Notes: generated from the sequence alone by a model not told the origin. 64,000 nucleotides of DNA from Clostridia bacterium (GCA_017936375.1 JAGBFR010000050.1:55597-119596); one strand, 5' to 3'. Positions 2,568 through 23,799 are shown, numbered from the stretch's first letter. Translations and numbers: made by a program.

Positions 2568-4382
2568 TCAGCCGGCGGAAAAGAGGCTGCTCGTCGCCTC
2601 GTCCTCGTACTGGCGGGTGTAGAGATTGTAATAATGGCCGCGCGCGGCGATGAGCTCCTCGTGCCTGCCCTGCTCGATGATCTTGCCGTCGCGGACGACG
2701 AGGATCAGATCCGCATGGCGGACGGTACTCAGCCTGTGCGCGATGACCAGCGAGGTGCGGCCCTTGATGATCGTCTCAATCGCAGACTGGATTTTCTGCT
2801 CGGTCAGCGTGTCGACGGAGGCCGTCGCCTCGTCGAGCACGAGAATGCGCGGATCGGCGAGGATCGCGCGGGCAAAGGAGATCAGCTGCTTTTCGCCGGT
2901 GGAGAGCATGTCGCCGCCCTCGCCGACGTCGCTGTCGAGCCCCTTGTCCATGCGGTCGACCACCTCCTGCGCGGAGACAAGCGCCAGCGCGCGGCGGATC
3001 TCCTCCTCCGTGGCGTCAGGATTGCCGTAGAGCAGGTTTTCCCGCACGGTGCCGGAGAAGAGATGCGGCGTCTGCAGGACATAGCCGATCGCCGAATGCA
3101 GCCAGAGCTGCGAGCGCTCGCGCGCGTCCCGCCCGTCGATGAGCACCTGACCGCGCGTGGGCTCAAAGAAGCGGCAGACGAGATTGACCAGCGTGCTCTT
3201 GCCCGCGCCCGTCTCGCCGACGATGGCGATGTTCGAGCCGAAGGGGATCTTCAGGCTGAAGTTTTCCAGCACATACTCGTCCCCGTCCGGGTATTTGAAA
3301 TCGACGTCCCTGAATTCGATGTCGCCGCGGATGGGCTCCCAGTTTTCCCGCTTGGGATGGAAGGCGTCGCCGTACTTTGCAATGACCTCGGGCGTGTCCG
3401 CCACGTCGGAGGTCGTCTCCAGCAGGCGGGAGAAGCGCTCGATATTCACCTGCGTGGTGATCAGCTCCGAGATCGCGTCGATGATCCAGCGGACGGGCTC
3501 CATCATGCCCTGCGCATAGGACATGAACATGGAGAACGTGCCGACCTCGCTCGCGGCGATATACCCGCCCCGCCAGAGAACGACCGCCAGCGCAAGGGAG
3601 GAAGCCATGTTCATCGTCGCGGCGAAGAGACCGCGCAGATGCGCCGCATGGACGGACCTGCGCCGGATCGCGCCGGTATCCTTGAGGAAGTCGCGCGCCA
3701 TCTTGTCCTCGATGACGAGCGCCTTGATCGTCTTCGCGCCGGTGATGCCCTCGTTAAAGTCGCTGGTGATCTGCGAATTGAGCTCGCGCACCTCGCGGTT
3801 GACGCGGATGAGCTTCGTCTGGAAGACGGAAAAGAGGACGACGAGCAGCGGCAGAATCGCGATGACCAGCAGCGCCAGCCTCGCATTGACTGCCAGCATC
3901 ACCAGCACCGCGCCGATGAGATAGGACAGGTGCCACACGCTGTCCATCAGCGACCAGGAGACCAGCGAGCCGATGCGCGAGGTATCGCTGATCACGCGCG
4001 CATGGATGTAGCCCACGCTGTTCTGATTGAAATAGGAGAAGGACAGCGTCTGCAGATGGCGGAAGGCCGCGTTGCGCAGGTCGCGATTCACGCCGACCTC
4101 CACCTTCATCGCATTGTTGCAGGAGATGTAATTGACCACGCCCGTCAGAAAGACGACAACCACGTAAACCGCGATGAACAGCGGCAGCCCGTCTAGCGTG
4201 CCCTTGGCGATAAAGTGATTGAGCGCATAGCGCTGGAACTGGGGGATCAGCAGGTCGATGCCCGTGGAGAGCAGGCCGCAGGCGACCATTGCCGCGACGA
4301 GGCCGCGGAATTTCTTCATAAAGGGCAGCACCTTGCCGATGCCGAAGAAGGGCAGCGAGCGCTTTTCATTGTCTCTCTTCAT
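2568..4382 (-). CDS. ABC transporter permease/ATP-binding protein (type I exporter half-transporter)
   Basis: 604 aa. Six-TM N-terminal domain plus an NBD with Walker A GETGAGKST, signature LSTGEKQ and Walker B ILVLDEA. Confidence 0.9.
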   Translation of the reverse strand: MKRDNEKRSLPFFGIGKVLPFMKKFRGLVAAMVACGLLSTGIDLLIPQFQRYALNHFIAKGTLDGLPLFIAVYVVVVFLTGVVNYISCNNAMKVEVGVNRDLRNAAFRHLQTLSFSYFNQNSVGYIHARVISDTSRIGSLVSWSLMDSVWHLSYLIGAVLVMLAVNARLALLVIAILPLLVVLFSVFQTKLIRVNREVRELNSQITSDFNEGITGAKTIKALVIEDKMARDFLKDTGAIRRRSVHAAHLRGLFAATMNMASSLALAVVLWRGGYIAASEVGTFSMFMSYAQGMMEPVRWIIDAISELITTQVNIERFSRLLETTSDVADTPEVIAKYGDAFHPKRENWEPIRGDIEFRDVDFKYPDGDEYVLENFSLKIPFGSNIAIVGETGAGKSTLVNLVCRFFEPTRGQVLIDGRDARERSQLWLHSAIGYVLQTPHLFSGTVRENLLYGNPDATEEEIRRALALVSAQEVVDRMDKGLDSDVGEGGDMLSTGEKQLISFARAILADPRILVLDEATASVDTLTEQKIQSAIETIIKGRTSLVIAHRLSTVRHADLILVVRDGKIIEQGRHEELIAARGHYYNLYTRQYEDEATSSLFSAG

Positions 4383-6211
4383 GCCTGCGCCTCCTTTCCC
4401 GTCATCGTTTGGATCTCATAGATGCGCTGATAGAGGCCGCCCGCCGTCTGCAGCTGCTGCGGCGCGCCCATCTCCGCGATGCGCCCCTTATCCAGGACGA
4501 TCACCTGATCGGCCTTGGAGAGCGTCGTGATGCGGTGGGAGATCAGGATGATGCTCGCGCTGCCAAAGCGCGCCTCCAGCGCCTTGCGGATCTTCGCGTC
4601 CGTCTCCGCATCGACAGCGGAGAGGGAGTCGTCAAAGATCATGATCGGCGTGTGCTTGGTCAGCATGCGCGCAATCGCCGCGCGCTGCTTCTGCCCGCCG
4701 GAGAGCGTCACGCCGCGCTCGCCGACAAACGTGTCATACCCCTTGGCAAATCCCTCGATCGTCTCATCCAGACAGGCTGCGCGCGCCGCCTCGCGGATGT
4801 CGCTGAGCGTCAGCCCCTCGTCCGTGATGGAGAGATTCTCCTGCAGCGTGCGCGAGAAGAGGAAGGGCTCCTGCAGGACGATGCCGATGTTCTTCCTCAG
4901 GTGCTCGCGGCGGATTCGGGCGATATCCACCCCGCCGACGGTGATGCGCCCGCAGCCCTCGGGCAGGTCATAGAGCCTGTCCAGCAGGAGCATGAGGGTC
5001 GACTTGCCGCTGCCCGTGCCGCCGAGGATGCCCAGCGTCGTGCCGGCCTTCATGGTGAAGGTGATGTCGTGGAGCATCTGCGGGCAGCCGTCATAGGCAA
5101 AGTTCACATGCTCAAAGGCAATATCCCCGCTCATGTCGGGCTCCAGCGCGTCCTCGCAGTCCCGCTCAACCGGCGAATCCATGATGTAGCCGATACGGTC
5201 GAGCGCGACGCCCGCTTTGCTCATGTCCGAGATCATGCGGCCCAGCTGGCGCACCGGCCAGATGAGCATCGAGCTGTAGGAGACGAATGCGATGTACTCG
5301 CCCGCGCTCATCCGCCCCTGCAGGCAGAAGAGTACGCCGAAGACGACCACCAGCATGATCTGCAGGCCGCTGAGGATATCGGAAGTGCTCCAGAACCTGG
5401 CCATCAGCTTCGCCATCTTCACCCACAGGCCGGTGTACATCTCATTGTGCGCCTCGAATCGGTCGCGCTCATAGCGCTCGCGGCCAAAGGCGCGCACCAC
5501 GCGCACACCGGTCAGGTTTTCCTGCACCATGGCGGAGAGCCTGCCCTCCGCCTCGTCGCATGCCTTAAAGCCGCCGCCCAGCTTCCTGTGGAACCAGAGC
5601 GAATAGATCACCGTGAGCGGCATCGGCAGCAGCGCAATCACCGCGAGCAGCGGATTCATGGAGAACATGAATACCATGCTCAGCACGACCAGCAGCAGGA
5701 TGCGGAACAGGCCCGTCATCTGCCCGGCGACGAAATTGCGCGTCGTCTCAATATCCGATGTGCAGCGCTGGATGATGTCGCCCGTGTGATTCTTCATGTG
5801 CCAGCTGAAGGGCAGATGCTCGATGTGCGTATAGAGCGTGTCGCGCATGGTCTTCACCAGCGACTCCGCGCCGCGCGTGTTGAAGACCAGAAAGCCGTAC
5901 TGCGCGATCACCTTGACCGCCGCCACCAGCAGCACCGCCAGCGCCATGATCCACAGATGCTCGCCCAGATACGCAAAGCCGCCGACCGCATTCACCAGAC
6001 GCATGACCGCCGGGCCGAATGTCGGCGCATTGCCGCCGATGGCATTGTCCACCGCCGCGCGGATGATCTGCGGCGAGATCATCTCCGCCAGCGTCGTCAG
6101 CGCCGCCATCAGCATGCCCACAGCAAACAGCCTGCGGCTGCCGCGCAGAAAGCGCCAGACCAGCGCGGCGCGCCCCGTCTTCTGCCCGTTATTGGGCTCG
6201 TTTTTCTGCAT
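4379..6211 (-). CDS. ABC transporter permease/ATP-binding protein (heterodimer partner)
   Basis: 610 aa with the same architecture: Walker A GGTGSGKST, signature LSGGQKQ. ATGA start/stop overlap with the downstream half-transporter. Confidence 0.9.
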   Translation of the reverse strand: MQKNEPNNGQKTGRAALVWRFLRGSRRLFAVGMLMAALTTLAEMISPQIIRAAVDNAIGGNAPTFGPAVMRLVNAVGGFAYLGEHLWIMALAVLLVAAVKVIAQYGFLVFNTRGAESLVKTMRDTLYTHIEHLPFSWHMKNHTGDIIQRCTSDIETTRNFVAGQMTGLFRILLLVVLSMVFMFSMNPLLAVIALLPMPLTVIYSLWFHRKLGGGFKACDEAEGRLSAMVQENLTGVRVVRAFGRERYERDRFEAHNEMYTGLWVKMAKLMARFWSTSDILSGLQIMLVVVFGVLFCLQGRMSAGEYIAFVSYSSMLIWPVRQLGRMISDMSKAGVALDRIGYIMDSPVERDCEDALEPDMSGDIAFEHVNFAYDGCPQMLHDITFTMKAGTTLGILGGTGSGKSTLMLLLDRLYDLPEGCGRITVGGVDIARIRREHLRKNIGIVLQEPFLFSRTLQENLSITDEGLTLSDIREAARAACLDETIEGFAKGYDTFVGERGVTLSGGQKQRAAIARMLTKHTPIMIFDDSLSAVDAETDAKIRKALEARFGSASIILISHRITTLSKADQVIVLDKGRIAEMGAPQQLQTAGGLYQRIYEIQTMTGKEAQA

Positions 6212-13278: not shown

Positions 13279-14775
13279 ATGGCACAGACGATTCATCTCA
13301 GGACGGAGAATCTGCAAAAGCTCCGCTCCGTCGACCCCAGACTGGTCTCCTACAACATCGAGATGACGGAGGTCACCGGCGGCACCTTCTGGAAGGCGTA
13401 TACCCCGGAGGAAATCGCCGGACGCGGCACATTCCCCATGGTCGGCTTCTCCAAAAAGGGCTCGCTCATGCAGGTCTACCCGCCCATCGACCTTACCCAG
13501 CCCCGCCTGAGAAAGCTGGCGAAGGCGCTGGGGCCCGTGTGGGTCCGCGTGTCCGGCACATGGTCGACCAAGACCTATTACGACTTTGACGGTGCGGCAA
13601 AGGGCGTCGCGCCCGAGGGCTTTCAGAATGTGCTGACCCGCGAGCAGTGGCTCGGCGTCCTCGATTTTGTCAAGGCCGTCGGCGGCAGGCTGCTGGTGTC
13701 CGTCGCCAACTGCGAGGGCATCCATGCCGCCCATGAGCCGTGGCAGCCCGCGCAGGCAAAGCTGCTGTTTGACCTGAGCCGCGAGTACGGCGTGCCGATT
13801 GACGCAGCGGAATTCATGAACGAGCCGAACCTGCTCTCCGGCTCCGGCGCGCCGAAGGGATACACCTTCAAGGATTACATCCGCGATCAGGACGTCTTCA
13901 ACAAGTGGCTCCATGAAAACTACCCGGAGACGCTGGCCGTCGGCCCCTGTTCCGTCGGCGGCGGGCAGATGGGCAAAATGAAGCTGGAAGAGGGCCTGCT
14001 CAAGATCGTCTCCAAGCTGGTCGGCACGGAGAAGCTCCTCAAGGGCGCGAAGGAAAAGATGGATGTCTTCAGCTATCACTACTACAATGGCGTGTCCGAG
14101 CGCATTGCGGCGGGCATGAGCTTCGTCCACTGGCCCGCAGAGAAGGCCCATTCCGAGGCCTATCTCGACGCGGCAGCCTACTGCGCAAGGGCCGCCGCGA
14201 AGCTGCGCGACCAGTACATGCCCGGCGCGCAGCTCTGGGTCACGGAGTCCGGCGACGCGGGCGGCGGCGGCGATACGTGGGCGTCCACCTATCTGGACGT
14301 ATTCAGGACGCTCAACGAGCTGGGCTCCTTCGCCGCGATTTCGGACGGCGTCATCTTCCACAATACGCTGGCCTCCTCCGACTACGGCTGGCTGAAGCAC
14401 GGCACGTTTGAGCCGCGGCCGAATTACTTCGCCGTCCTCTTGTGGAATACCCTGATGGGCACCGAGGTCTACGACTCCGGCGAGCCCATCCGCGAGGGCG
14501 CGCATGTCTACTGCCACTCCCGCAGGGATGGGCAGAAGGGCCTTGCGTATCTCATCATCAACAATTCCGCGACGGAGAGCACCGCCGTGGAGCTGCCCCG
14601 CGAGGCCGTCCGCTACACGCTGGCGGGCCGCGACGGCGTGCGCAGCCCCGTCATGACGCTCAACGGGCGCGAGCTGTTCTTGGGCGCCAATGACGAGCTG
14701 CCCGACCTGTCCGGCGAGACGGTCAGCGGCAGGCTTGTATTGGCGCCGCAGACGTGCACGTTTATTGTGGTGTGA
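13279..14775 (+). CDS. glycoside hydrolase family 79-like (heparanase/beta-glucuronidase-like)
   Basis: Clan GH-A acid/base motif FMNEPN. The nucleophile segment LWVTESGDAGGGGDTWAS parallels the heparanase GETSSAYGGG segment. Start at MAQTIHL. Confidence 0.65.
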   Translation: MAQTIHLRTENLQKLRSVDPRLVSYNIEMTEVTGGTFWKAYTPEEIAGRGTFPMVGFSKKGSLMQVYPPIDLTQPRLRKLAKALGPVWVRVSGTWSTKTYYDFDGAAKGVAPEGFQNVLTREQWLGVLDFVKAVGGRLLVSVANCEGIHAAHEPWQPAQAKLLFDLSREYGVPIDAAEFMNEPNLLSGSGAPKGYTFKDYIRDQDVFNKWLHENYPETLAVGPCSVGGGQMGKMKLEEGLLKIVSKLVGTEKLLKGAKEKMDVFSYHYYNGVSERIAAGMSFVHWPAEKAHSEAYLDAAAYCARAAAKLRDQYMPGAQLWVTESGDAGGGGDTWASTYLDVFRTLNELGSFAAISDGVIFHNTLASSDYGWLKHGTFEPRPNYFAVLLWNTLMGTEVYDSGEPIREGAHVYCHSRRDGQKGLAYLIINNSATESTAVELPREAVRYTLAGRDGVRSPVMTLNGRELFLGANDELPDLSGETVSGRLVLAPQTCTFIVV

Positions 14776-14878: not shown

Positions 14879-14938
14879 TCCGGACGGTACGTGTGCGGAG
14901 CGGAGTATCCAGACCATTCTCCGTCCGATCGGGCTATG

Positions 14939-14971
14939 TGCTGCTTGCATCAAAAATACATGTAAGGAGCA
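14939..14971 (+). promoter_or_regulatory. Shine-Dalgarno-sequestering hairpin upstream of the MFS gene
   Basis: TGCTGCTTGCAT pairs with ATGTAAGGAGCA (11 of 12 positions, 9-nt loop). The 3' arm contains the AAGGAG RBS of the ATG at 14977. Confidence 0.4.
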
Positions 14972-14976
14972 AAGCC

Positions 14977-16269
14977 ATGAAAAAGAATTCTCCCGCCGCC
15001 AGCCTGCGCCCCTTCCTGATGCTATGGGCTTCGCAGGGCGTTTCCTCCATGGGCACCGAAATGACCAATTACGCGCTGGTCATCTGGGTTTACAGTCAGA
15101 ATGGAACCGCGTCCAGCTTATCATTGCTGACACTCTGTTCCTTTCTGCCCACCATTCTGTTCCGCTTTATCGCCGGCGCACTTGCTGATCGATGGAATAA
15201 GAAGCGCATCATGCTGCTCTCAGATCTGCTTGCCGCCTGCGGAACCCTTACGGTCTTCGCGCTTTATTCATCGTCAGCTCTGACAGTTATTCATCTGTAC
15301 GCCATCAATACCCTGCTGAGCCTGATGAACGCATTTCAGGTGCCTGCGGCCTATGTGGCAACGAGTCTACTGGTACCCGAGGAGCACTATATCCGCGCAG
15401 GAGGCCTGCAGACGGTATCAGGCGCGCTCATATCCATCCTTTCGCCGGTATTGGGCGCAGTTGTCCTTGCGTGGGGCGGTATATCTGCGGTGCTGGCAAT
15501 TGATCTGGTCACCTTTGCCGTCGCTTTCCTGACCCTTCTATTCATCCGCATACCCAAGATTGAGAAAAAACAGGAATTGAGGGAATCTTTCCTGCAGACC
15601 AGTCTGTCAGGATTGCGGTATCTCAAGGAGCATCCGCATCTTCTGCATCTGATCGTGTACATTGCCGCTGTGAATTTCCTTGCCAAGCTGGGGCCGGATG
15701 GACTGATGTCCGCCTTCATCCTCAGCAGATCAAGCGGCAATCAGGCTGCACTGAGCGTTGTCCAGTCAGCCGTAGCGCTGGGGCTGCTGACAGGCGGCAC
15801 GCTGACATCCTTTGCAAAGCAATCGCAAAACCCAGTCAGAATGATTCTCATGATGTGCTGCCTCATTTTTACTGCAGGTATAGGCCTTTCGCTCAGCAGG
15901 AATACAATTGGCTGGTGCGTAACAGCATTCCTCCAGTATACCTTTGCAGCCGTCATGAATATTCACTGGGGCGCGCTTATGCGCTCAGAGGTTCCATTAG
16001 AGATGCAGGGACGCGTATTCTCAGCCAGAGATACCCTGCAGAATTGCACGATTCCTTTGGGGCTGTATCTGGGAGGCGTGCTTGCCGACCACGTATTTGA
16101 GCCGCTGATGAGCGGCAAATCCGCAGCGGCAGCATTGCTGGCTTCTGTCTTTGGCAGCGGAAACGGCTCGGGCATTGCTGTGTTGTTTTTTCTTGTTTCA
16201 GCAGCCGGGCTTATCCTCAGCGCAGTCTGCATGAGCACGAAATGCTTTAGCAAGCGTCATTCAGCTTAA
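14977..16269 (+). CDS. MFS transporter (Mef/EntS-like efflux type)
   Basis: About 12 TM helices. The N-terminal region LWASQGVSSMGTEM...ALADRWNKKRIM resembles macrolide/enterobactin exporter-type MFS_3 proteins. Start at MKKNSP after AAGGAG. Confidence 0.85.
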   Translation: MKKNSPAASLRPFLMLWASQGVSSMGTEMTNYALVIWVYSQNGTASSLSLLTLCSFLPTILFRFIAGALADRWNKKRIMLLSDLLAACGTLTVFALYSSSALTVIHLYAINTLLSLMNAFQVPAAYVATSLLVPEEHYIRAGGLQTVSGALISILSPVLGAVVLAWGGISAVLAIDLVTFAVAFLTLLFIRIPKIEKKQELRESFLQTSLSGLRYLKEHPHLLHLIVYIAAVNFLAKLGPDGLMSAFILSRSSGNQAALSVVQSAVALGLLTGGTLTSFAKQSQNPVRMILMMCCLIFTAGIGLSLSRNTIGWCVTAFLQYTFAAVMNIHWGALMRSEVPLEMQGRVFSARDTLQNCTIPLGLYLGGVLADHVFEPLMSGKSAAAALLASVFGSGNGSGIAVLFFLVSAAGLILSAVCMSTKCFSKRHSA

Positions 16270-16320
16270 TATGATCAAGGGCTGCTGCAGTTAATCCTGC
16301 AGCAGCTCTTATTCTATATC

Positions 16321-16522
16321 GGAGCATAGGGGAGTCTCCTCTCGCGCCTCGACGGCGCTCGGTCAGGGCGGCTCTGACGTGCCACTGGCACGTCATTCAC
16401 ATTCCGGGGAGCCTGCATAGTCGCGGTGTTCCACCGCTCCTTGCAGTTCCCCACGCTCCGCCTCGCTATTTCGCCCACTGGGCGCGCTCGGCTTCGGTGC
16501 CGCCCAGGTTCGACTCCCCTAT
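16321..16522 (-). ncRNA. expanded copy (A) of the tRNA-Ala-tail structured element
   Basis: Shares the outer about 45 nt and about 22 nt with the 110-nt copies. The inner helices are rewritten by compensatory changes, and there is an insertion of about 93 nt (16406-16498) that folds on its own. Lacks the terminal ACCA. Strand assignment is tentative. Confidence 0.45.
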
Positions 16523-16532
16523 TTTTCATAAC

Positions 16533-16567
16533 ATAAGAAAAAGCACCCACAAGTGGGTGCTTCTTAT
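16533..16567. terminator. bidirectional hairpin, stronger as a minus-strand terminator
   Basis: GCACCCA-CAAG-TGGGTGC. The minus strand is followed by TTTTTCTTAT. Confidence 0.55.
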
Positions 16568-16570
16568 GGG

Positions 16571-16712
16571 AAACGACTCAAATACTAAAACAATTCCCGG
16601 CTATCGTTTTGCAGTAGAACCTTTCGTTTTGCGAATAGATGTGTTGGGTGCAAACGACTCTGACTGGGTGTAAAACCGGCTCGGTGGGTACAACACCGGA
16701 CTTTCGTTTTGG
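16571..16712. repeat. repeat L1 (GGGTGCA and CTTTCGTTTTG motif array)
   Basis: Aligns directly with 18045-18175 and in inverted orientation with 17608-17700. Confidence 0.55.
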
Positions 16713-16806
16713 TATTTGCTGTTTCGTGTACTTTTACTTTTTTAAACATCAAAGAGTTGCGATATGCAGCAGCCTCTTCGAATGGCAATGAATCCATTTT
16801 TGCTAT

Positions 16807-17442
16807 TTATTCCTCGGTAAAGGGGGAATTTTCTGCTATTACAAGCTCCACACCCTCCATTTCTGATGCCAGGCGTTGTTCCCGCAACCATCGTGAATGG
16901 GCAGAACCGACTTCAGGCCATTCCAATTCTTCCCGTTTGATCTTTGCCAACTGAAACAACTCATCGTCCATAATGGATAAATAAACATCCATTTGTTTTT
17001 CAGGAGAGAGCCAAGCTTCAATCGCAGTAACCGCAATTCGCAGAGCATCGTAAGGTGGATATCCATATATCCCCGAGGAAATCAGAGGAAAGGCAACGGT
17101 ATGCGCATCGCAGTCCCTCGCATCAAACAAAGCAGACCAGTAACAGTTGTACAGCTGGATGGCTTCCTCTATGCTGCCCGTTTTATAGATTGGTCCAACG
17201 GCGTGAATGACGTATTTTGCAGGAAGGGCAAACCCCGGTGTAACAACTGTACTGCCAACCTCGCATCCGCCTATTCTATCGCAGGCTTCTTGCATCTGAT
17301 TTTGACCAGCAGCACGAAAAATTGCACCGCACACACCACCGCCTTTATGTCTTGCGAAATTCTTCAATTTTGCATTTGCTGCATTGACAATCGCATCGAC
17401 TTGCATGGTAGTAATATCTTGTTGAACAAATGTTAGCGGCAA
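16807..17442 (-). CDS. macro domain protein (ADP-ribose/O-acetyl-ADP-ribose hydrolase family) with C-terminal extension
   Basis: VDAIVNAANAKL and GGGVCGAIFRAAG motifs. TTG start 7 nt after AGGAGG. The last roughly 65 aa have no domain I recognise. Confidence 0.85.
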   Translation of the reverse strand: MPLTFVQQDITTMQVDAIVNAANAKLKNFARHKGGGVCGAIFRAAGQNQMQEACDRIGGCEVGSTVVTPGFALPAKYVIHAVGPIYKTGSIEEAIQLYNCYWSALFDARDCDAHTVAFPLISSGIYGYPPYDALRIAVTAIEAWLSPEKQMDVYLSIMDDELFQLAKIKREELEWPEVGSAHSRWLREQRLASEMEGVELVIAENSPFTEE

Positions 17443-17607
17443 ATAGATGCACCTCCTGATACTCGATCCTTGAGAACTTTCATGTCCATCGAATAGAAAA
17501 CCTCTCCGCTAGGCCAACTTATATTGATATTATATAATAACCCATCAATCCCCACAAGTAACAAACATAGTGCGAATAGGAAAACTCGTACTTTCTTAGT
17601 TTTTCAG

Positions 17608-17700
17608 GCATTTGCACCCAATCACAAAATAAAGGGCTATTCACAAAACGAAAGCCCTAATGTCAAAACGAAAGCCTGAGCAATCGTTTTGTTATGCACC
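17608..17700. repeat. repeat R1 (inverted copy of L1/L2)
   Basis: TTTGCACCCA followed by two CAAAACGAAAG units. This is the reverse complement of the motif order in L1 and L2. Confidence 0.55.
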
Positions 17701-17841
17701 CGCCGAGGAGAGTGGGTGCATTGTATCTATGCAGTTTTTCAGCGAAGATTTGTCCCGAGGATGGCAGCGATGGAAGTGGTATGCAAAACTGCAAAAATCC
17801 GGATACATTTGCCGTTTTACATTAGGAATCAGCAAGAGCAT

Positions 17842-17880
17842 AAAGAAAAGGACTGAAACCTTGTATCAAAGCTTCAGTCC
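17842..17880 (-). terminator. intrinsic terminator immediately after element B
   Basis: Minus strand GGACTGAAGC...GGTTTCAGTCC (10-bp stem) followed by TTTTCTTT. Confidence 0.65.
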
Positions 17881-17885
17881 TTTTA

Positions 17886-17995
17886 TGGTGGAGCATAGGG
17901 GAGTCTCCTCTCGCGCCTCGACGGCGCTCGGTCAGCCCGGTTCTGAGGCCCCACTGGGGCCTCATTCATCCCCGGGCCAGGTTCGACTTCCCTAT
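17886..17995 (-). ncRNA. tRNA-Ala-tail structured element, copy B
   Basis: 110 nt. The minus-strand 3' end GACTCCCCTATGCTCCACCA equals the last 20 nt of tRNA-Ala. 11-bp closing helix plus two inner hairpins. Confidence 0.45.
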
Positions 17996-18005
17996 TTTTC
18001 ATACC

Positions 18006-18043
18006 ATAAGAAAAAGCACCCACAAGTGGGTGCTTCTTCTTAT
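18006..18043. terminator. bidirectional hairpin, stronger as a minus-strand terminator
   Basis: Same GCACCCA-CAAG-TGGGTGC hairpin as at 16533-16567. Confidence 0.55.
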
Positions 18044-18044
18044 G

Positions 18045-18175
18045 GGCAATAACTCAAAAACTAATACAATTCCCGGCTATCGTTTTGCAATAGCCCTTTC
18101 ATTTTGCAATGGGTGCATCTGGGTGCAAATTGTAGCTCGGTGGGTGCAACGCCGAGCTTTCGTTTTGTCATTACC
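18045..18175. repeat. repeat L2
   Basis: Direct copy of L1 with three GGGTGCA units and CTTTCGTTTTG. Confidence 0.55.
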
Positions 18176-18257
18176 ATCAATTGTTTTGTATGGTATGAAT
18201 CCTATAACGGAAGGATCGGCAGTACGTCCTTTGATGATACATCATACGCAATACATT

Positions 18258-18310
18258 AAAGCAGCCCCGCATCTAACATGATGTGCTGGATGTGGGGCTG
18301 CTTTTGTTTG
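18258..18310. terminator. bidirectional hairpin downstream of the MFS gene
   Basis: AGCAGCCCCGCATC...GATGTGGGGCTGCT with T-rich flanks. Confidence 0.5.
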
Positions 18311-18346
18311 CAGATAAAAAACAGCCGATGTCCATAAATAAAGTTG

Positions 18347-19543
18347 TCAATCCTTCTGCACCTGATTCTTTTTTGTCATGCGGCGCATGATGATCAAGCC
18401 AATCATCAGCCCAATGGGGAAAATGCAGCCGACCTGTAGCCCAGCGCGGAGATCATCGCCCGCCAACTGGGTCGCATAGCCCACCATGCTGGGGCCGAAT
18501 GCGCCGCCGAGGTCGCCAGCCATGGCCAGCAATGCAAACAGGGCCGTGCCGCCAAGGGGCATCCGGGCGGAGGTGATGCTGAGGGTTCCCGGCCACATGA
18601 TGCCCACGGAAAAACCGCAGGCTATGCAGCCCACCAGTCCCCAGATGGGATTAGCCGTCATGGAGGCCAGCAGATAGCACACAAGACACAGCGCGCCGGA
18701 ACCCAGCATGAAACTGGTCAATTCCACCTTTTCGCCGTATTTTCCATACAGCACACGGCTGATACCCATGGTGATGGCGAACAGGCAGGGCCCCAACAGA
18801 TCGCCCAGCGTTTTGCTCAGCCCCAGCGCAGCCTCTGCATAGGCGGAGGCCCACTGTGCCATTGCCAGTTCGGATGCACCGGAGCACACCATCAGCAGCA
18901 CGGCCAGCCAGAACAGCGGCGCTTTGCATAGCTGCCGGATGGTCATGCCCTGACCGTCCTCCACCAGATGCTCAATGGGGCAGCGCAGGAAATTGACAAT
19001 GTTCCACAGGGGGACAATGGCCCAGAGGCAGGCAAGGATCTTCCAGCACGCCACGCCGAACACGGAAAAAAACACCGTGGATAAAAGCACCACAGCCACC
19101 GAGCCCCAGCAGTAGAAGGAATGAAGCAGGCTCATCACGGCGTCCTTGTTATCAAAGGGACAGGCCTCCACAATGGGACTGCCCAGCACTTCCATCAGGC
19201 CGCTGCCAATGGCATACAGAATGACGCACAGGATCACACCGATGAACGGATCACCCAGCATCTCCGGCAGAAAAGCCAATCCGGCCAGTCCCAGCGCAGA
19301 GGTGACCTGCGACCCGACAATCGCCCGACGATAGCCGATCTTGTCCACGTACTGGGCACAGAGAGCGTCCACGATCAGCTGCGTCAGAAAGAATGCGGTG
19401 GGGATCAGCGCGATATGCCCCAGGCTGATCTGGTAGTCCTTGTGGAAGGTCAGGAACAGCAGGGGCGCAAAGTTTGCGCAGATCGCCTGGGTGATAAAGC
19501 CCAGATAGCAGGCCATGAGTGTCTTGCGGTAGTTCTTCTGCAT
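18347..19543 (-). CDS. MFS transporter
   Basis: 398 aa, about 12 TM helices. Divergent from an AraC-family gene. Confidence 0.85.
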   Translation of the reverse strand: MQKNYRKTLMACYLGFITQAICANFAPLLFLTFHKDYQISLGHIALIPTAFFLTQLIVDALCAQYVDKIGYRRAIVGSQVTSALGLAGLAFLPEMLGDPFIGVILCVILYAIGSGLMEVLGSPIVEACPFDNKDAVMSLLHSFYCWGSVAVVLLSTVFFSVFGVACWKILACLWAIVPLWNIVNFLRCPIEHLVEDGQGMTIRQLCKAPLFWLAVLLMVCSGASELAMAQWASAYAEAALGLSKTLGDLLGPCLFAITMGISRVLYGKYGEKVELTSFMLGSGALCLVCYLLASMTANPIWGLVGCIACGFSVGIMWPGTLSITSARMPLGGTALFALLAMAGDLGGAFGPSMVGYATQLAGDDLRAGLQVGCIFPIGLMIGLIIMRRMTKKNQVQKD

Positions 19544-19661
19544 CAGGAGTCACTCCTTGTTGTTGTTGATGATATTATATCCCAATACGGCGGCGAAGTC
19601 ATTGAAAAGAATCCCTGAAATATGATACAATATCACAAACAATGCAAATGGAGAAGAAGCT

Positions 19662-20549
19662 GTGAAGCCTGTACACACCTTTCCCCGCATCGCAACGGAT
19701 CAAACGCTCCGCGAGACAGTCAGCCACGGAAGCCTGGATTATCCCTTTCAGTATTATCTTGAAAACGTGTGGGAGTTTGATCTTCACTGCATCGACTGGC
19801 ACTGGCATCCCGAATTGGAGATGATCTATGTGAACAGCGGTGAAACCCTGGTGTCCATCGGCGGCGAACAGGTGCCCGTGCCGGAGGGCTGCGGGATGCT
19901 GATTAATGGGCGCATGGTGCATCGCTTCCAGTCAGAACGCAGCACCTGGATGCCCAACATCGTTTTTTCGCCAGCACTTCTTGCGCCGGAGGGCAGCCTC
20001 ATTTACCGCAGGTACGTCCAGCCGCTGCTGGAGGGCGGCTTTTCCTACTGCCTATTCGATCCACAGATCACCTGGCACGGAGAAGTGCTGCGGCTCTTGC
20101 GGATGATCTTCTCCGATCACGAAAAAGGCGATGTCAGCCAGCTGCGCACGCTGCGGCTGCTGCTGGAGATGTGGGAGATCATCGTGAGTCATGTGGAAAT
20201 ATCCCCTGCCTCCGGCAGCAGCCGACGCACCGGGGAGCAGGCCAGACTGCAGATGATGCTGCAATTCATCCAGGACCATTACCGCGAGCCGATCACCCTG
20301 CAGCGCATTGCGGATTCTATCTACATCAGCAAAAGCAGCGCCCTGCAGATCTTTCACGAGGGGATCCACCAATCCCCTGTGGCCTATCTGATCAATTACC
20401 GGTTGAACTGCGCCGCGCAGCAGCTGCGCACCACCGAGCGGACAGTCGCCGCCATTGCGGCGGATACCGGTTTTTCCAGCGCAGGCTATTTCTGCCGCAG
20501 GTTCCGGGAGCTGTATGGCGTTACTCCGCAGCAATACCGTTCGCGCTGA
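19662..20549 (+). CDS. AraC family transcriptional regulator
   Basis: N-terminal cupin-like sensor and C-terminal double HTH (QRIADSIYISKSSALQIFHE...AADTGFSSAGYFCRRFRELYGVTP). GTG start. Confidence 0.85.
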   Translation: MKPVHTFPRIATDQTLRETVSHGSLDYPFQYYLENVWEFDLHCIDWHWHPELEMIYVNSGETLVSIGGEQVPVPEGCGMLINGRMVHRFQSERSTWMPNIVFSPALLAPEGSLIYRRYVQPLLEGGFSYCLFDPQITWHGEVLRLLRMIFSDHEKGDVSQLRTLRLLLEMWEIIVSHVEISPASGSSRRTGEQARLQMMLQFIQDHYREPITLQRIADSIYISKSSALQIFHEGIHQSPVAYLINYRLNCAAQQLRTTERTVAAIAADTGFSSAGYFCRRFRELYGVTPQQYRSR

Positions 20550-20746
20550 TGGGAGTTACTTGCATTCGCAAAACGCAAGCCCGAGTAATCGATTTGTTAA
20601 GCATCCACCGGGGAGAGTGGGGACATTTTATCTATGCAGTTTTTCAGCGGAAATTTGTCCCGAGGATGGCGGAGAAGGAAACTTACCACAATCACTCATA
20701 TTCCCGGGTGCATTTGCCGTTTTACATTAGGAATCAGCAAGAGCAT

Positions 20747-20785
20747 AAAGAAAAGGACTGAAACCTTGTATCAAAGCTTCAGTCC
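20747..20785 (-). terminator. intrinsic terminator immediately after element C
   Basis: Identical to the hairpin at 17842-17880. Confidence 0.65.
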
Positions 20786-20790
20786 TTTTA

Positions 20791-20900
20791 TGGTGGAGCA
20801 TAGGGGAGTCTCCTCTCACGCCTCGACGGCGCTCGGTCAGCCCGGTTCTGAGGCCCCACTGGGGCCTCATTCATCCCCGGGCCAGGTTCGACTCCCCTAT
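20791..20900 (-). ncRNA. tRNA-Ala-tail structured element, copy C
   Basis: 110 nt with one private substitution relative to B and D. Confidence 0.45.
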
Positions 20901-20910
20901 TTTTTATACC

Positions 20911-20938
20911 ATAACAAAAACCACCCTTCCGGGTGGTT
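20911..20938 (-). terminator. terminator hairpin between elements D and C
   Basis: Minus strand AACCACCC-GGAA-GGGTGGTT followed by TTTGTTAT. Confidence 0.5.
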
Positions 20939-20946
20939 CTTTGTTA

Positions 20947-21056
20947 TGGTGGAGCATAGGGGAGTCTCCTCTCGCGCCTCGACGGCGCTCGGTCAGCCCG
21001 GTTCTGAGGCCCCACTGGGGCCTCATTCATTCCCGGGCCAGGTTCGACTCCCCCAT
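20947..21056 (-). ncRNA. tRNA-Ala-tail structured element, copy D
   Basis: 110 nt with two private substitutions. Confidence 0.45.
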
Positions 21057-21066
21057 TTTTTGTACC

Positions 21067-21094
21067 ATAACAAAAACCACCCTTCCGGGTGGTT
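21067..21094 (-). terminator. terminator hairpin after tRNA-Ala
   Basis: Same hairpin as at 20911-20938. Confidence 0.5.
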
Positions 21095-21102
21095 CTTTGT
21101 TA

Positions 21103-21178
21103 TGGTGGAGCATAGGGGAGTCGAACCCCTGACCTTTTGAATGCCATTCAAACGCGCTACCAACTGCGCTAATGCCCC
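21103..21178 (-). tRNA. tRNA-Ala (anticodon GGC), CCA encoded
   Basis: Hand-folded 76-nt cloverleaf: acceptor GGGGCAT/ATGCTCC with G3:U70, D arm GCGC/GCGC, anticodon stem TTTGA/TCAAA with loop ATGGCAT, T arm AGGGG-TTCGACT-CCCCT, then ACCA. Confidence 0.9.
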
Positions 21179-21191
21179 GTCAACATTACAT

Positions 21192-21220
21192 ATTATAGCG
21201 TAGACGGGGTTGGAAGTCAA
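21192..21220 (-). promoter_or_regulatory. sigma-A promoter of tRNA-Ala
   Basis: The minus strand reads TTGACT, a 17-nt spacer, then TATAAT, about 14 nt upstream of the mature 5' end. Confidence 0.65.
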
Positions 21221-21254
21221 TACTGAATTTTCTCTTTTTCGCAAATTCTCGCGC

Positions 21255-22289
21255 TTATTCCCATGCCCGGCTGAGCGTCACCCCGCGGAAGTAGTGCAGC
21301 ACGATCTCCTGCGCAGTCCTCCCCTGCCTCGCCATGGCGTTTGCGCCCCACTGGCTCATGCCCACACCGTGACCATAGCCCTTGCCGCGCATGACGACTT
21401 TCCCATCCTCCACGCGGATGCTCTCAAGCAGGCAGGAGCGCATTTTCGTCGACCCGATCGCAATGCGGAAGGCCGGGGCGGAGACCTCCTTCCCGGAGAT
21501 CAGCAGCGTCATCGCGCGGCCCGATTCGCCCCGCTGTCCGATGGAAATCCCTGTCAGCTCGCCGGCCGATGCGCCTGCGTCCTTCGCGGCGGCGAGCACC
21601 TCTTCCGCCGTAAAGACCGCCTCCCAATTCGCAGCCTCCGGCGGCGCTTCGTCATCCTCCATGCCCCGGACGCACTGCGTGTAGCCCGGCTCCGCCTTCT
21701 CGTAATCAAGGCCCTCCTTCGCCCGCGCGGTCAAGCCGCCCGAATGCGCATGGAACCACGCATACGGCAATTCGCCGCCGGCATTGAGCACGAGGCCGCG
21801 CGTCTCCTGCACCGCCCGGCGAATTCTGTCGTTAACAGCGTCCGGGTTATAGGCCTGCGCCTCACGGATATCCGTGGAGATGTCCGCGCCGTCGTACATC
21901 GATTCCTTCTGCGAGACAAACTGCAAAACGAATGTGCGCGCGAGGATCGCCTGCGCCTTGAGCGCCTCCAGCGGCCAGTCGCCCGCCATCTCCCCGGCGA
22001 GCACCGCCGGCAGGTAATCCTCCACGGACAGCTCCTCCATCGTTTCCCTGTCCACGTCATAGACCTTCAGCATCGGAACGCCGTCCGCCCCCGCCGCAAG
22101 GCGCTCGGGCACCAGCTCCGCCGCCATGCCCGGCTCTGCGGAGGGCTGCGCCGTCGCCTGCGGCGTATTCTCCGGCTCGGGCAGCGCGGGCTGATCCGCC
22201 CCGCCGGAGCGCCTTGCGCAGCCGCTCATGAGCATCAGCGCCATGATCATCAGCGCCGCCAGCATGTTCCTCATCTTCATACCCTTCAC
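21255..22289 (-). CDS. spoIID: SpoIID/LytB domain protein (stage II sporulation protein D-like)
   Basis: Lipoprotein-like signal, AQAILARTF, WFHAHSGGLT and GHGVGMSQWGA motifs. Confidence 0.85.
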   Translation of the reverse strand: MKGMKMRNMLAALMIMALMLMSGCARRSGGADQPALPEPENTPQATAQPSAEPGMAAELVPERLAAGADGVPMLKVYDVDRETMEELSVEDYLPAVLAGEMAGDWPLEALKAQAILARTFVLQFVSQKESMYDGADISTDIREAQAYNPDAVNDRIRRAVQETRGLVLNAGGELPYAWFHAHSGGLTARAKEGLDYEKAEPGYTQCVRGMEDDEAPPEAANWEAVFTAEEVLAAAKDAGASAGELTGISIGQRGESGRAMTLLISGKEVSAPAFRIAIGSTKMRSCLLESIRVEDGKVVMRGKGYGHGVGMSQWGANAMARQGRTAQEIVLHYFRGVTLSRAWE

Positions 22290-22427: not shown

Positions 22428-23714
22428 TCAGTAGTTGACGTTGAGCGTGGAGACATAGGCCACGCCGCCGTCGATGAGAATCATGCAGACGCTCGTGCCA
22501 TACTGCAGCATGGTCGCCTGCTTGCCCGGCTGGACGATCGTCTTGAGCGAAGCCAGCGCGGAGTCGTTGAAGATGTGGATATTCTGGCTGCTGCTGCCGT
22601 AGGCGACAGCCAGCGTGATCTGCGTGCCGGCCTTCGGCGTGTTTTCCACGCCCGGATACTGCGGCTTCGGGGTGATGTACTGCACCAGCGGCGTCGGCGT
22701 CGTCACCGGATAATACGGCTTCGGGGTGATATACTGCACCAGCGGCGTCGGCGTTGCCGCCGGGTAATAGCCGCTCGGCGGCAGATAATTGCCGTCAAAG
22801 CTCAGGTAGCGCGTCATCATATAGCCGTGCTTCGTGCCGACATAGACCTCGCACCACGTTGCGCCATAGCCCACGACCTTGACCTGCGTGCCGTTGCGGT
22901 ACTGGCCGATGGAGCGCGCGGACTGGGACGGCGTCTCGCGCAGGTTGAGCACCTGCGTACTGATCGGATTGTTGACAAAGGCGATACGGACGGCGGTCTG
23001 CGTGCCGGAGGACGAGCCTGTATTGCTGCCCACCGTGCTGCCGGAGCCGGAGATATACTGCGTGGACATAAAGCCCGTCATGCCGTTTGCAGAAATTCTG
23101 TACCAGCCGTTGCCCTTGAGCAGAATCGTAACCTGCGTGCCGGAGGCCAGCGTGCCGATGCTCGAATACCCGGAGCCCGGGCCGGAGCGGACGTTGACCC
23201 TGCCGCCATTGCGGGTGGTCACGGTCGCTGTGCTCACGCCGCGCTCAATCAGGGAATCGTGCATGTAGCCGGTATAGGTATATCCATTCTGCACGACGGA
23301 CACATAATTCCACTCATAGGAATCATTGAGAATCGTCACCGCAGAGCCAGACGTCGCGCGCACGACCACACCGTAGGACAGCGACGGGCCGCTGCGCAGA
23401 TTGACATAGCCGCCGTTGGCGTACTTGACCGTCGCGCTGCCGGCGTTCGCGCCCAGATTCAGATAATTGGCGGACATGTAGCCGCTCTTCCCATCCAGCG
23501 TCCTCACCTGCCACCAGCCGTTGCCGGCATTCTGCTGCAGGATGACCCACGAACCTGTATTATACTTGCCAAGGCTGCGGCTCGACATGCTGGCATACTC
23601 GCGCAGATTCAGCCTGCCTCCCTTGACCACAGCGTAATCCGCCGCCAGCGCGAGCGCAGGCAGCAGGAGCAGCAGCACAAGCGCTGCCAGAATCCGCCTT
23701 GAATTCTTCCTCAT
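22428..23714 (-). CDS. secreted protein with multiple bacterial SH3 (SH3b) repeats
   Basis: Signal peptide, then at least five repeats of the pattern G..VNLRSGPS..Y..IG....G..V. Tandem proline-rich repeat PTPLVQYITPKP x2. Confidence 0.7.
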   Translation of the reverse strand: MRKNSRRILAALVLLLLLPALALAADYAVVKGGRLNLREYASMSSRSLGKYNTGSWVILQQNAGNGWWQVRTLDGKSGYMSANYLNLGANAGSATVKYANGGYVNLRSGPSLSYGVVVRATSGSAVTILNDSYEWNYVSVVQNGYTYTGYMHDSLIERGVSTATVTTRNGGRVNVRSGPGSGYSSIGTLASGTQVTILLKGNGWYRISANGMTGFMSTQYISGSGSTVGSNTGSSSGTQTAVRIAFVNNPISTQVLNLRETPSQSARSIGQYRNGTQVKVVGYGATWCEVYVGTKHGYMMTRYLSFDGNYLPPSGYYPAATPTPLVQYITPKPYYPVTTPTPLVQYITPKPQYPGVENTPKAGTQITLAVAYGSSSQNIHIFNDSALASLKTIVQPGKQATMLQYGTSVCMILIDGGVAYVSTLNVNY

Positions 23715-23799
23715 TGATCTCACCAACCCTCTTGTCCTGTGTATACTAGACGAATGAGCATTCCGCTTTCATCCCGGTATTTTCCAATCATGTTCCTGA

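Follow-up and report, generated by a model that had tools for sequence, protein, structure and literature searches.

A structured element fused to duplicated tRNA 3' ends in gut and rumen Clostridia and in phages, and its possible role as a folded DNA insertion site

Why does the 3' end of a tRNA gene recur four more times next to that gene, on each occasion as part of one and the same foldable repeat? The question is raised by a 64,000-nucleotide (nt) stretch of a Clostridia bacterium (GCA_017936375.1 JAGBFR010000050.1:55597-119596, hereafter the window), in which the sole tRNA gene, tRNA-Ala(GGC) with an encoded CCA (21103-21178, minus strand; ARAGORN, 68 bits with the Rfam tRNA model), is the anchor of an array of four structured modules. 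The final 16 nt of the tRNA before ACCA, GACTCCCCTATGCTCC, occur five times on the minus strand (16321, 17890, 20795, 20951 and 21107), with a chance expectation of about 0.06. We show here that the module belongs to a previously undescribed structured element that is widespread in gut and rumen Clostridia and in their phages, the repeat of the window being one subtype. By the logic of integron attC sites or of the CTX-phage attP hairpin, we tentatively propose that it may be a cis-acting, folded single-strand DNA site for recombination or insertion.

All four modules lie on the minus strand, downstream of the tRNA promoter (TTGACT-17-TATAAT, 21220-21192, minus strand, promoter scan). Copy D (20947-21056), with a 5' arm, an inner core of helices P2, P3 and P4 and a 20-nt tRNA-Ala tail, scores 139 bits with the covariance model (fold z = -5.7), while copies C (20791-20900) and B (17886-17995) score 135.5 bits (z = -5.0) and 133.9 bits (z = -4.2); exactly four alignment positions vary among the three. 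The distal long form, copy A (16321-16522), was delimited by alignment (fold z = -6.0; 65.7 bits on 16317-16420) and contains the same core with approximately 92 nt of additional structured sequence; its tail stops at GACTCCCCTATGCTCC (...GCTCC), without ACCA. The right end of the copies (GGTTCGACTCCCCTAT, plus strand) repeats 16 nt of the tRNA T-loop, T-stem and acceptor in inverted orientation without a mismatch, and it is because of this inverted copy that the 11-base-pair (bp) helix P1 closes. In the minimum-energy fold of the minus strand, this helix is accompanied by a stem of 7 bp, an asymmetric internal loop rich in purines, a hairpin of 9 bp capped by an AGU loop and a GCGCC-GUCGA-GGCGC hairpin, with GCUCCACCA left unpaired as the tail; z-scores are -4.2 to -6.0 for the four copies. 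Coordinates, differences and fold thus agree with an earlier reading of this DNA made without database searches (the sequence-only reading). The module is a three-way junction on the tRNA-sense strand, formed by the closing helix P1, an arm of P2, internal loop and P3, and the hairpin P4.

The sequence-only reading had recognised no named RNA family in the module, and the library searches bear this out. No Rfam 15 family matched the module even at E<=10; the region 16200-21300 gave at best E = 0.1, about half the threshold, and the tRNA alone was matched in the window. Rfam matches were likewise absent from 10 viral loci and from positions 4300-4700 of the phage locus L031. Relatives were reached through a spurious 168-amino-acid open reading frame (ORF; 20634-21137, plus strand) that crosses copies C and D and has homologues in a set of 5.8 billion proteins. 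A covariance model (R1), followed by a scan of a viral collection with a pattern of the core alone (10 contigs), brought the number of homologues from metagenomes and viral contigs to 29, the further copies in loci L007 and L015-L024 stemming from protein-set homologues and one metagenome scan. The degenerate pattern CTGACCGAG-N15-GAGAGGAGAC gave only five chance-level matches among genomes sampled at one per species (Streptomyces, Caulobacteraceae, Acidimicrobiales; at most 21 bits with the model) and none in the viral collection, blastn of phage-type and window units against GenBank phages gave no match, and a full-text literature search found no description of such an element. Wherever a tRNA can be seen in these loci, the element immediately follows tRNA-Ala(GGC) and its terminator, on the strand of the tRNA and in one to four tandem units; gene-less units of 140-156 nt stand behind tRNA-Ala in at least 10 independent loci, genes between units are usually absent, and contigs hold one to four copies. 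Two independent assemblies of the same species (L007, contig end 11357, and L008) break just past the first unit behind tRNA-Ala. These breaks would be expected of a repeat that short reads cannot span, and the abundance of the element is therefore probably underestimated.

The fold is strongly backed by covariation. In 13 distinct Ala-type sequences aligned with MAFFT and RNAalifold, 92.8% of the cells are paired and 11 pairs have both sides changed, a result equalled by none of 500 shuffles. With all 29 sequences (27 distinct), 92% of the cells are paired and both sides have changed in 29 of 36 pairs, again equalled in 0 of 500 shuffles and compared with 36-47% paired in slid controls; this second alignment was fitted to the covariance model and is biased towards the structure, while the alignment of 13 sequences is independent of it and already has the effect. 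Compensatory changes fall in P2, P3 and P4 across the 27 distinct sequences, and there is hardly any variation in the unpaired segments RUGAAUGA, UCAGARC, UGACCGAG and CGAGA. Mismatches are asymmetric, with 29 G.A or A.G against 9 C.U or U.C and 33 G.U against 14 A.C, and because of this asymmetry the evidence points to the tRNA-sense strand as the single strand that folds. The same compensatory changes, together with members that have no tRNA, confirm that the module is much more than an att duplication, as had been supposed from the sequence.

Comparison of the members revealed that the conserved part of the family is the inner core and not the tRNA tail; P1 needs only to close. Members anchored at a tRNA have a P1 whose 3' strand, together with the tail, duplicates the adjacent tRNA gene from T-loop to CCA, with the tRNA's own terminator next; the same segment, inverted, supplies the 5' strand of P1. 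Ala-type 5' arms occur in three registers (ATAGGGGAGTC, GCATAGGGGAG-GA and GCGGGAGTC), and the arm of type-2 copies, GCAU-AGGGG, fuses acceptor positions 4-7 to the T-stem. Behind tRNA-Ser(GCU) and its terminator in L021 (4246-4351), the core is closed by two tRNA-Ser strands, GTAGGGATTTGAAC at the 5' side and CAAATCCCTCCTTC at the 3' side, and peptides P0110 and P0111, one of them from an NCBI 'Clostridia bacterium' metagenome-assembled genome, read back to what would be a Ser-type unit in tandem whose tRNA-Ser tail is complete. Other tRNA-like arms are present in L028, L030 and L036. The phage members (L029, three copies in L031, L032-L035) have non-tRNA outer helices, with inverted repeats of up to 16 bp, and no CCA; the same holds for a stand-alone chromosomal member (L040-L045; 14 contigs, 57.8 bits), which has non-tRNA arms, no CCA and no tRNA nearby. 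Chimeric or long copies exist, and the tails of distal copies are decayed (copy A of the window, L024 and the long copy of L016). The CCA tail, given prominence in the sequence-only reading, is therefore not the defining feature but a duplicated 3' end of the neighbouring tRNA that phage and stand-alone members lack. The outcome by which that reading would have made the rest of the repeat neutral sequence, homologues retaining only the 20-nt tRNA block, is reversed: the inner structure is kept and the tRNA block is changed or lost.

Several copies depart from the common plan. The additional segment of copy A (about 92 nt, 16360-16455) is homologous to one in the distal long copy of L016 (~930-1030); the two are inserted at different points of the core. 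The segment of copy A carries its own CC-AGU-GG hairpin and a CGAAGC motif and may represent a nested or chimeric second element. In the Ser-type copy of L021 (4170-4260, minus strand), three short G+C-rich hairpins (~72 nt) separate the T-stem strand from the final GCCA of the tail. At the 5' junction, phage-type copies (L029, L031-L035; for instance L031 4418-4428) carry GCGAAGC, a heptamer that forms an unusually stable DNA mini-hairpin, and tRNA-type members carry TCGAAC, the complement of the universal T-loop GTTCGA. The array of L015 (10391-10470) ends at TGGTGGAGCCCGCGCGACGGTACTCGAACCCC, where only GCTCCACCA and a T-loop-like block resemble a tRNA and ARAGORN calls nothing; a similar ...GGCTCCACCA adjoins an island end (L1, described below) in L027. 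A truncated unit, GCGGGAGTCGAACCGAGCAAGGGGATGCGCCACCA, follows the full copy in L018 (~13860-13905, minus strand), its 5' arm nearly directly joined to a different CCA-ending tail.

The window shows how such units are arranged with respect to terminators and cargo. Directly after the tRNA CCA lies T1, a bidirectional terminator hairpin with an A-rich spacer (21057-21102, minus strand; seen in the sequence and by terminator scan at 21075-21094), and a second copy of T1 stands between D and C (20901-20946, minus strand; repeat families D1 and D3, terminator scan at 20919-20938, alignment of T1 with T1b), the tRNA, D and C following one another with a period of 156 nt. Upstream of module B is the hairpin T2 (17996-18045, minus strand; pairwise alignment, terminator scan 18014-18035), which is homologous to T1 and preceded by CCCATAA, and a further T2 hairpin is found upstream of module A (16523-16569, minus strand; terminator scan 16565-16538, alignment). 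T2, before A and B, and T1, before C and D, both start with CCATAA or CCCATAA. The sequence-only reading had placed a minus-strand intrinsic terminator after each of B, C and D; terminator-like hairpins do follow B and C on that strand, while D, like the tRNA, is followed by the bidirectional T1.

Two stretches of cargo interrupt this order. Island 2 (18046-20787; from Pfam, repeats, junction sequences and the homology of T1 and T2) comprises, in the order of the tRNA strand, a T3 hairpin (20751-20789) and an L1 end (~20560-20750), an AraC-family gene (19662-20549, plus strand), a major facilitator superfamily (MFS) transporter gene (18347-19543, minus strand) and an R1 end (~18046-18175) with CTTTCGTTTTG repeats; it is flanked by TTATGG (= CCATAA) at 20788-20793 and 18040-18045. 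Island 1 (16570-17882; Pfam Macro E = 1e-36, repeats, sequence) likewise consists of a T3 hairpin (17846-17884) with an L1 end, a macro-domain gene (16807-17442, minus strand) and an R1 end (16570-16730), between TTATGG at 17883-17888 and 16564-16569. The array is bounded on its chromosomal side by the bidirectional terminator (16277-16310, plus strand; terminator scan) of an upstream MFS gene (14893-16269; Pfam MFS_1). Since T2 and T1 are homologous and both island junctions have CCATAA, the underlying order is tRNA-T1-D-T1-C-T2-B-T2-A, a four-unit array of terminator, module and tRNA 3' end, in which two small islands with L1/R1 ends landed later, in units C and B, at the exact point where the CCA meets the terminator. 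Neither the separate nature of the islands at CCA|TAA nor the homology between the terminators of A and B and those of C and D had been noted in the sequence-only reading. We also considered whether the module is the right end of the cargo islands and rejected it on the homology of T2 and T1, the CCATAA boundaries of the islands, and L028, where units lie beyond a prophage end and that end itself has no module.

How could one core be combined with the ends of different tRNA genes? We suggest that the module might work in cis as a folded single DNA strand, and not as a tRNA-like RNA: P1 would rebuild the duplex of the target tRNA gene within one strand, so that the unit would be a site of recombination or insertion that is defined by structure and carries no gene. 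A trans-acting recombinase would insert or duplicate the unit at the 3' end of the tRNA that it matches, as with an integron attC or the CTX-phage attP hairpin, and as a by-product each unit would offer islands an additional landing site of tRNA end and terminator. Support for this proposal comes from arms that track the neighbouring tRNA, from covariation, from gene-less arrays of one to four copies and from the CCATAA junctions of the islands. As expected of a folded attP, P1 is formed by an inverted copy (16 nt) and a direct copy (20 nt) of the tRNA segment, and the arms change with the tRNA, the single-stranded stage being hypothetical. Duplex DNA as short as the gene-less units of 140-156 bp does not readily form circles, and their size points to single-stranded or slippage-type events.

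Among known systems, integron attC sites and the clusters of attC sites lacking integron-integrases (CALINs) share with the module the same-orientation arrays, an imperfect palindrome of 60-140 nt per unit that folds on one strand, a site end shared with the next partner, gene-less cassettes and a recombinase that may be elsewhere. Unlike attC, the module has no R''/R' core boxes (RYYYAAC/GTTRRRY), ends in ATAGGGGAGTC...GACTCCCCTAT or in other arms with no IntI seen, is anchored at a tRNA 3' end and not at attI, and has a highly conserved core sequence where attC sites conserve structure only. To our knowledge, integrons are essentially unknown in Clostridia. That the family is a tRNA-anchored counterpart of integrons in this class, with gene-less and cargo-bearing units inserted as folded single strands, base-pairing arms that set the target and the three-way junction as the handle of the recombinase, is a more specific version of the proposal that we regard as rather improbable; under it a change of arms (Ala, Ser, others) would change the target, and the recombinase acting in trans is putative. 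In CTX-phage attP(+) and the dif-Xer elements, inverted target copies some 80-90 nt apart also pair within a single strand and rebuild the target duplex, and recombinase-less elements also pile up in tandem at one chromosomal site, but the target of the module is a tRNA T-loop and acceptor and not dif, filamentous-phage genes are absent, and the spacer is a conserved three-way junction.

The accretion of islands with partial tRNAs at a tRNA gene, as in tycheposons, is the nearest published analogy for the array. In tycheposons, in tandem islands of Firmicutes and in their decayed, gene-poor remnants, the cis-mobilisable elements (CIMEs), the tRNA 3' end is duplicated at each junction and integrase-less cargo elements stand in tandem, and tRNA-Ala(GGC) is among the known tycheposon targets (bioRxiv 10.1101/2020.12.28.424599). 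Their repeats are plain partial tRNAs, whereas here the tRNA end is joined to a structured, covarying core that has an inverted arm, in gene-less units down to 140 nt. Direct repeats of the tRNA 3' end (16-20 nt, five times) do lie at the island boundaries of the window, but no integrase was seen at the end of a segment or among the Pfam matches listed for the rest of the window. With repetitive extragenic palindromes (REPs), their paired form (REPINs) and miniature inverted-repeat transposable elements (MITEs) the module shares being short, gene-less, structured, multi-copy and intergenic, often after terminators and in either orientation; it differs in its low copy number, branched junction, invariant loops and tRNA-matching arms, and no REP-associated tyrosine transposase (RAYT), other transposase or target-site duplication was found for it. 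As in tRNA minihelices, transfer-messenger RNA (tmRNA) and viral tRNA-like ends, the tail reads ...GCUCCACCA and P1 has T-stem pairs and up to four acceptor pairs, but acceptor pairs 1-3 are missing, an 80-nt core takes the place of the T-loop and the tail is dispensable in other members; ARAGORN calls the true tRNA only, and the Rfam matches to tmRNA_permuted and Tymo_tRNA-like are at chance level. A hammerhead was also considered, as the order stem, (C)UGACCGA, hairpin, GAG and A-U-closed stem recalls CUGANGA-stem II-GAA-stem III; it was rejected on an extra base at position 7, GAG in place of GAA, the lack of an unpaired H17, GUGA in phage copies and the absence of an Rfam match at E<=10.

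Several observations weigh against a folded-DNA insertion site. No recombinase was found in the window among the best 25 Pfam families listed, and the products of the cargo genes are macro, MFS and AraC proteins only. The arrays of L019 and L021 have no recombinase within about 5 kb, and none is common to the phage contigs; serine integrases were seen only at other loci (L009, L027, L030 and L036), and large serine recombinases use double-stranded sites and need no hairpin. Neither a pair of empty and occupied sites nor a circular junction was found, so that we infer the insertion, and unequal crossing-over alone could make arrays grow. Moreover, covarying stems with near-invariant junctions, a GGAA tetraloop in the P4 of some members and tandem G.A pairs are classic hallmarks of functional RNAs, and in bacterial loci the module always points the way of the tRNA or gene upstream of it, so that read-through transcripts would contain it. 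The module might thus be a small non-coding RNA or a cis-acting RNA domain on the tRNA-sense strand, made by terminator read-through or from weak lineage-specific promoters, with a protein-binding or catalytic three-way junction, a tail that borrows tRNA 3' processing and the terminator, and a P1 that imitates the stacked acceptor/T-stem helix. The purine-mismatch asymmetry, which implies a single folded strand, is in keeping with this, as are the intrinsic terminator that ends each unit, the type-2 arm and TGGTATAAA, which in the window lineage lies 5-7 nt ahead of copy C and resembles an extended -10 element. Nevertheless, each unit lies directly downstream of a strong terminator, the promoter scan found on the unit strand near the window units only the promoter of the tRNA itself, and no conserved -10 element was seen upstream of units at other loci; a weak plus-strand promoter proposed in the sequence-only reading was not reported by the consensus scan. 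In phages the orientation is mixed, the module being sense in L029, L030 and L032 and antisense to capsid, portal and terminase genes in the podovirus-like L031 and L035 and to flanking structural genes in L034. G.U pairs are rare: P3 has 240 Watson-Crick pairs and zero G.U in 243 cells, which is what a penalty on G.T would produce. The fold stays the same under DNA energy parameters, so energy does not separate RNA from DNA. Chimeric or long copies and the lack of an Rfam match also speak against an RNA, the CCA tail is absent or interrupted in the Ser copy of L021 and in phage and stand-alone members, and with the first three acceptor pairs and the T-loop missing the module is not a tRNA-like substrate. 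We consider an RNA possible but somewhat doubtful, and its status as RNA, proposed in the sequence-only reading, does not follow from these data. Given the lack of a conserved promoter, the terminators that bracket the units, the mixed phage orientation and the almost purely Watson-Crick pairing, we lean towards a cis-acting folded DNA site.

An unlikely explanation, in our view, is that of a selfish MITE- or REPIN-type palindrome spread in trans by a single-strand transposase (HUH- or RAYT-like) or another enzyme into safe sites after terminators; the match between P1 arms and tRNA would then come from homology at the insertion site and template-switch 'correction' of an imperfect palindrome and not from functional selection. 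Multiple copies per genome or phage in both orientations, contigs that often break at the element (L007, the second copy of L029, L036), the chimeric and long copies, the position behind a terminator that recurs in tRNA loci and in L040, and the outer inverted repeats of the phage copies would all fit such an element. However, target-site duplications were not recognised, neither HUH nor RAYT genes were seen among the matches listed for the window or in the phage contigs, and the apparent copy number is low, with one to four per genome. In addition, some 30 unpaired nt are nearly invariant across hosts and contexts, beyond the usual needs of end recognition by a transposase, and an exact tRNA tail with terminator in the tRNA-locus unit is not a product of simple transposition. 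Finally, the copies could be ordinary att scars: islands integrating one after another would have left neutral direct repeats of the tRNA 3' end, and the other 90 nt would be element-end sequence under no selection. In its favour, the 20-nt block matches the tRNA 3' end exactly, copies flank cargo, and islands with partial tRNAs are well known to accrete in tandem at tRNA genes, tycheposons being one case (bioRxiv 10.1101/2020.12.28.424599). This explanation is highly improbable, as it is contradicted by the covariation in P2, P3 and P4 and by the members without tRNA, the core being present also away from tRNAs and in phages; furthermore, the islands end at CCATAA, outside the module.

Under the folded-site proposal the units would also matter to other mobile DNA, and in effect they do act as extra landing sites of tRNA end and terminator, since islands abut terminator and module, as do prophages with large serine integrases (L030, L036). 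The island ends recur elsewhere: L1 (17600-17885 and 20560-20790 in the window) and R1 (16570-16730 and 18046-18175) are also found in L009-L014, L025-L027, L038 and L039 and carry 3+3 inverted CTTTCGTTTTG repeats and GGGTGCA motifs. The L1 hairpin, with a conserved UUG-AUA-CAA apex, directly adjoins the CCA of several different tRNAs (tRNA-Cys, -Ser and -Pro by ARAGORN, others judged by peptide reading frames) and also non-tRNA sites, and about 100 homologues of the spurious ORF have the L1 end in common. Large serine recombinase genes adjoin L1 in L009 and L027, and the cargo of L1 islands is of defence type (including ABC-3C, LlaJI-type restriction, reverse transcriptase and SbcCD-like genes). 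The L1/R1 islands thus look like a widespread family that targets the junction of tRNA end and terminator. No module with matching arms was found within reach at the far end of L1-type islands (L012, L013, L038 and L039; tRNA-Cys, -Ser and -Pro). In island 1 the cargo is a lone 211-amino-acid macro-domain protein, which from its sequence may be an ADP-ribose-removing counter-defence or antitoxin-type gene. Outside the array, a 54-nt tandem duplication with 89% identity (22652-22759) is a coding repeat in the gene of an SH3-repeat protein (22428-23726, minus strand).

What is new, then, is a structured family, without an Rfam counterpart, that is fused to tRNA att repeats and fits the principle of a folded attP. 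It adds to the gut and rumen Clostridia and to their phages a well-supported element of unusual architecture, in which the core is constant and the closing helix changes with the tRNA next to it. As an RNA, it would be a new conserved three-way junction represented in phages and in chromosomes; as a recombination site, it would constitute a structure-defined, arm-addressed insertion system at tRNA genes and would explain the multiplying landing pads for defence and cargo islands. Either way, the CCA tail in this array is a duplicated gene end and not the end of a tRNA-like RNA.

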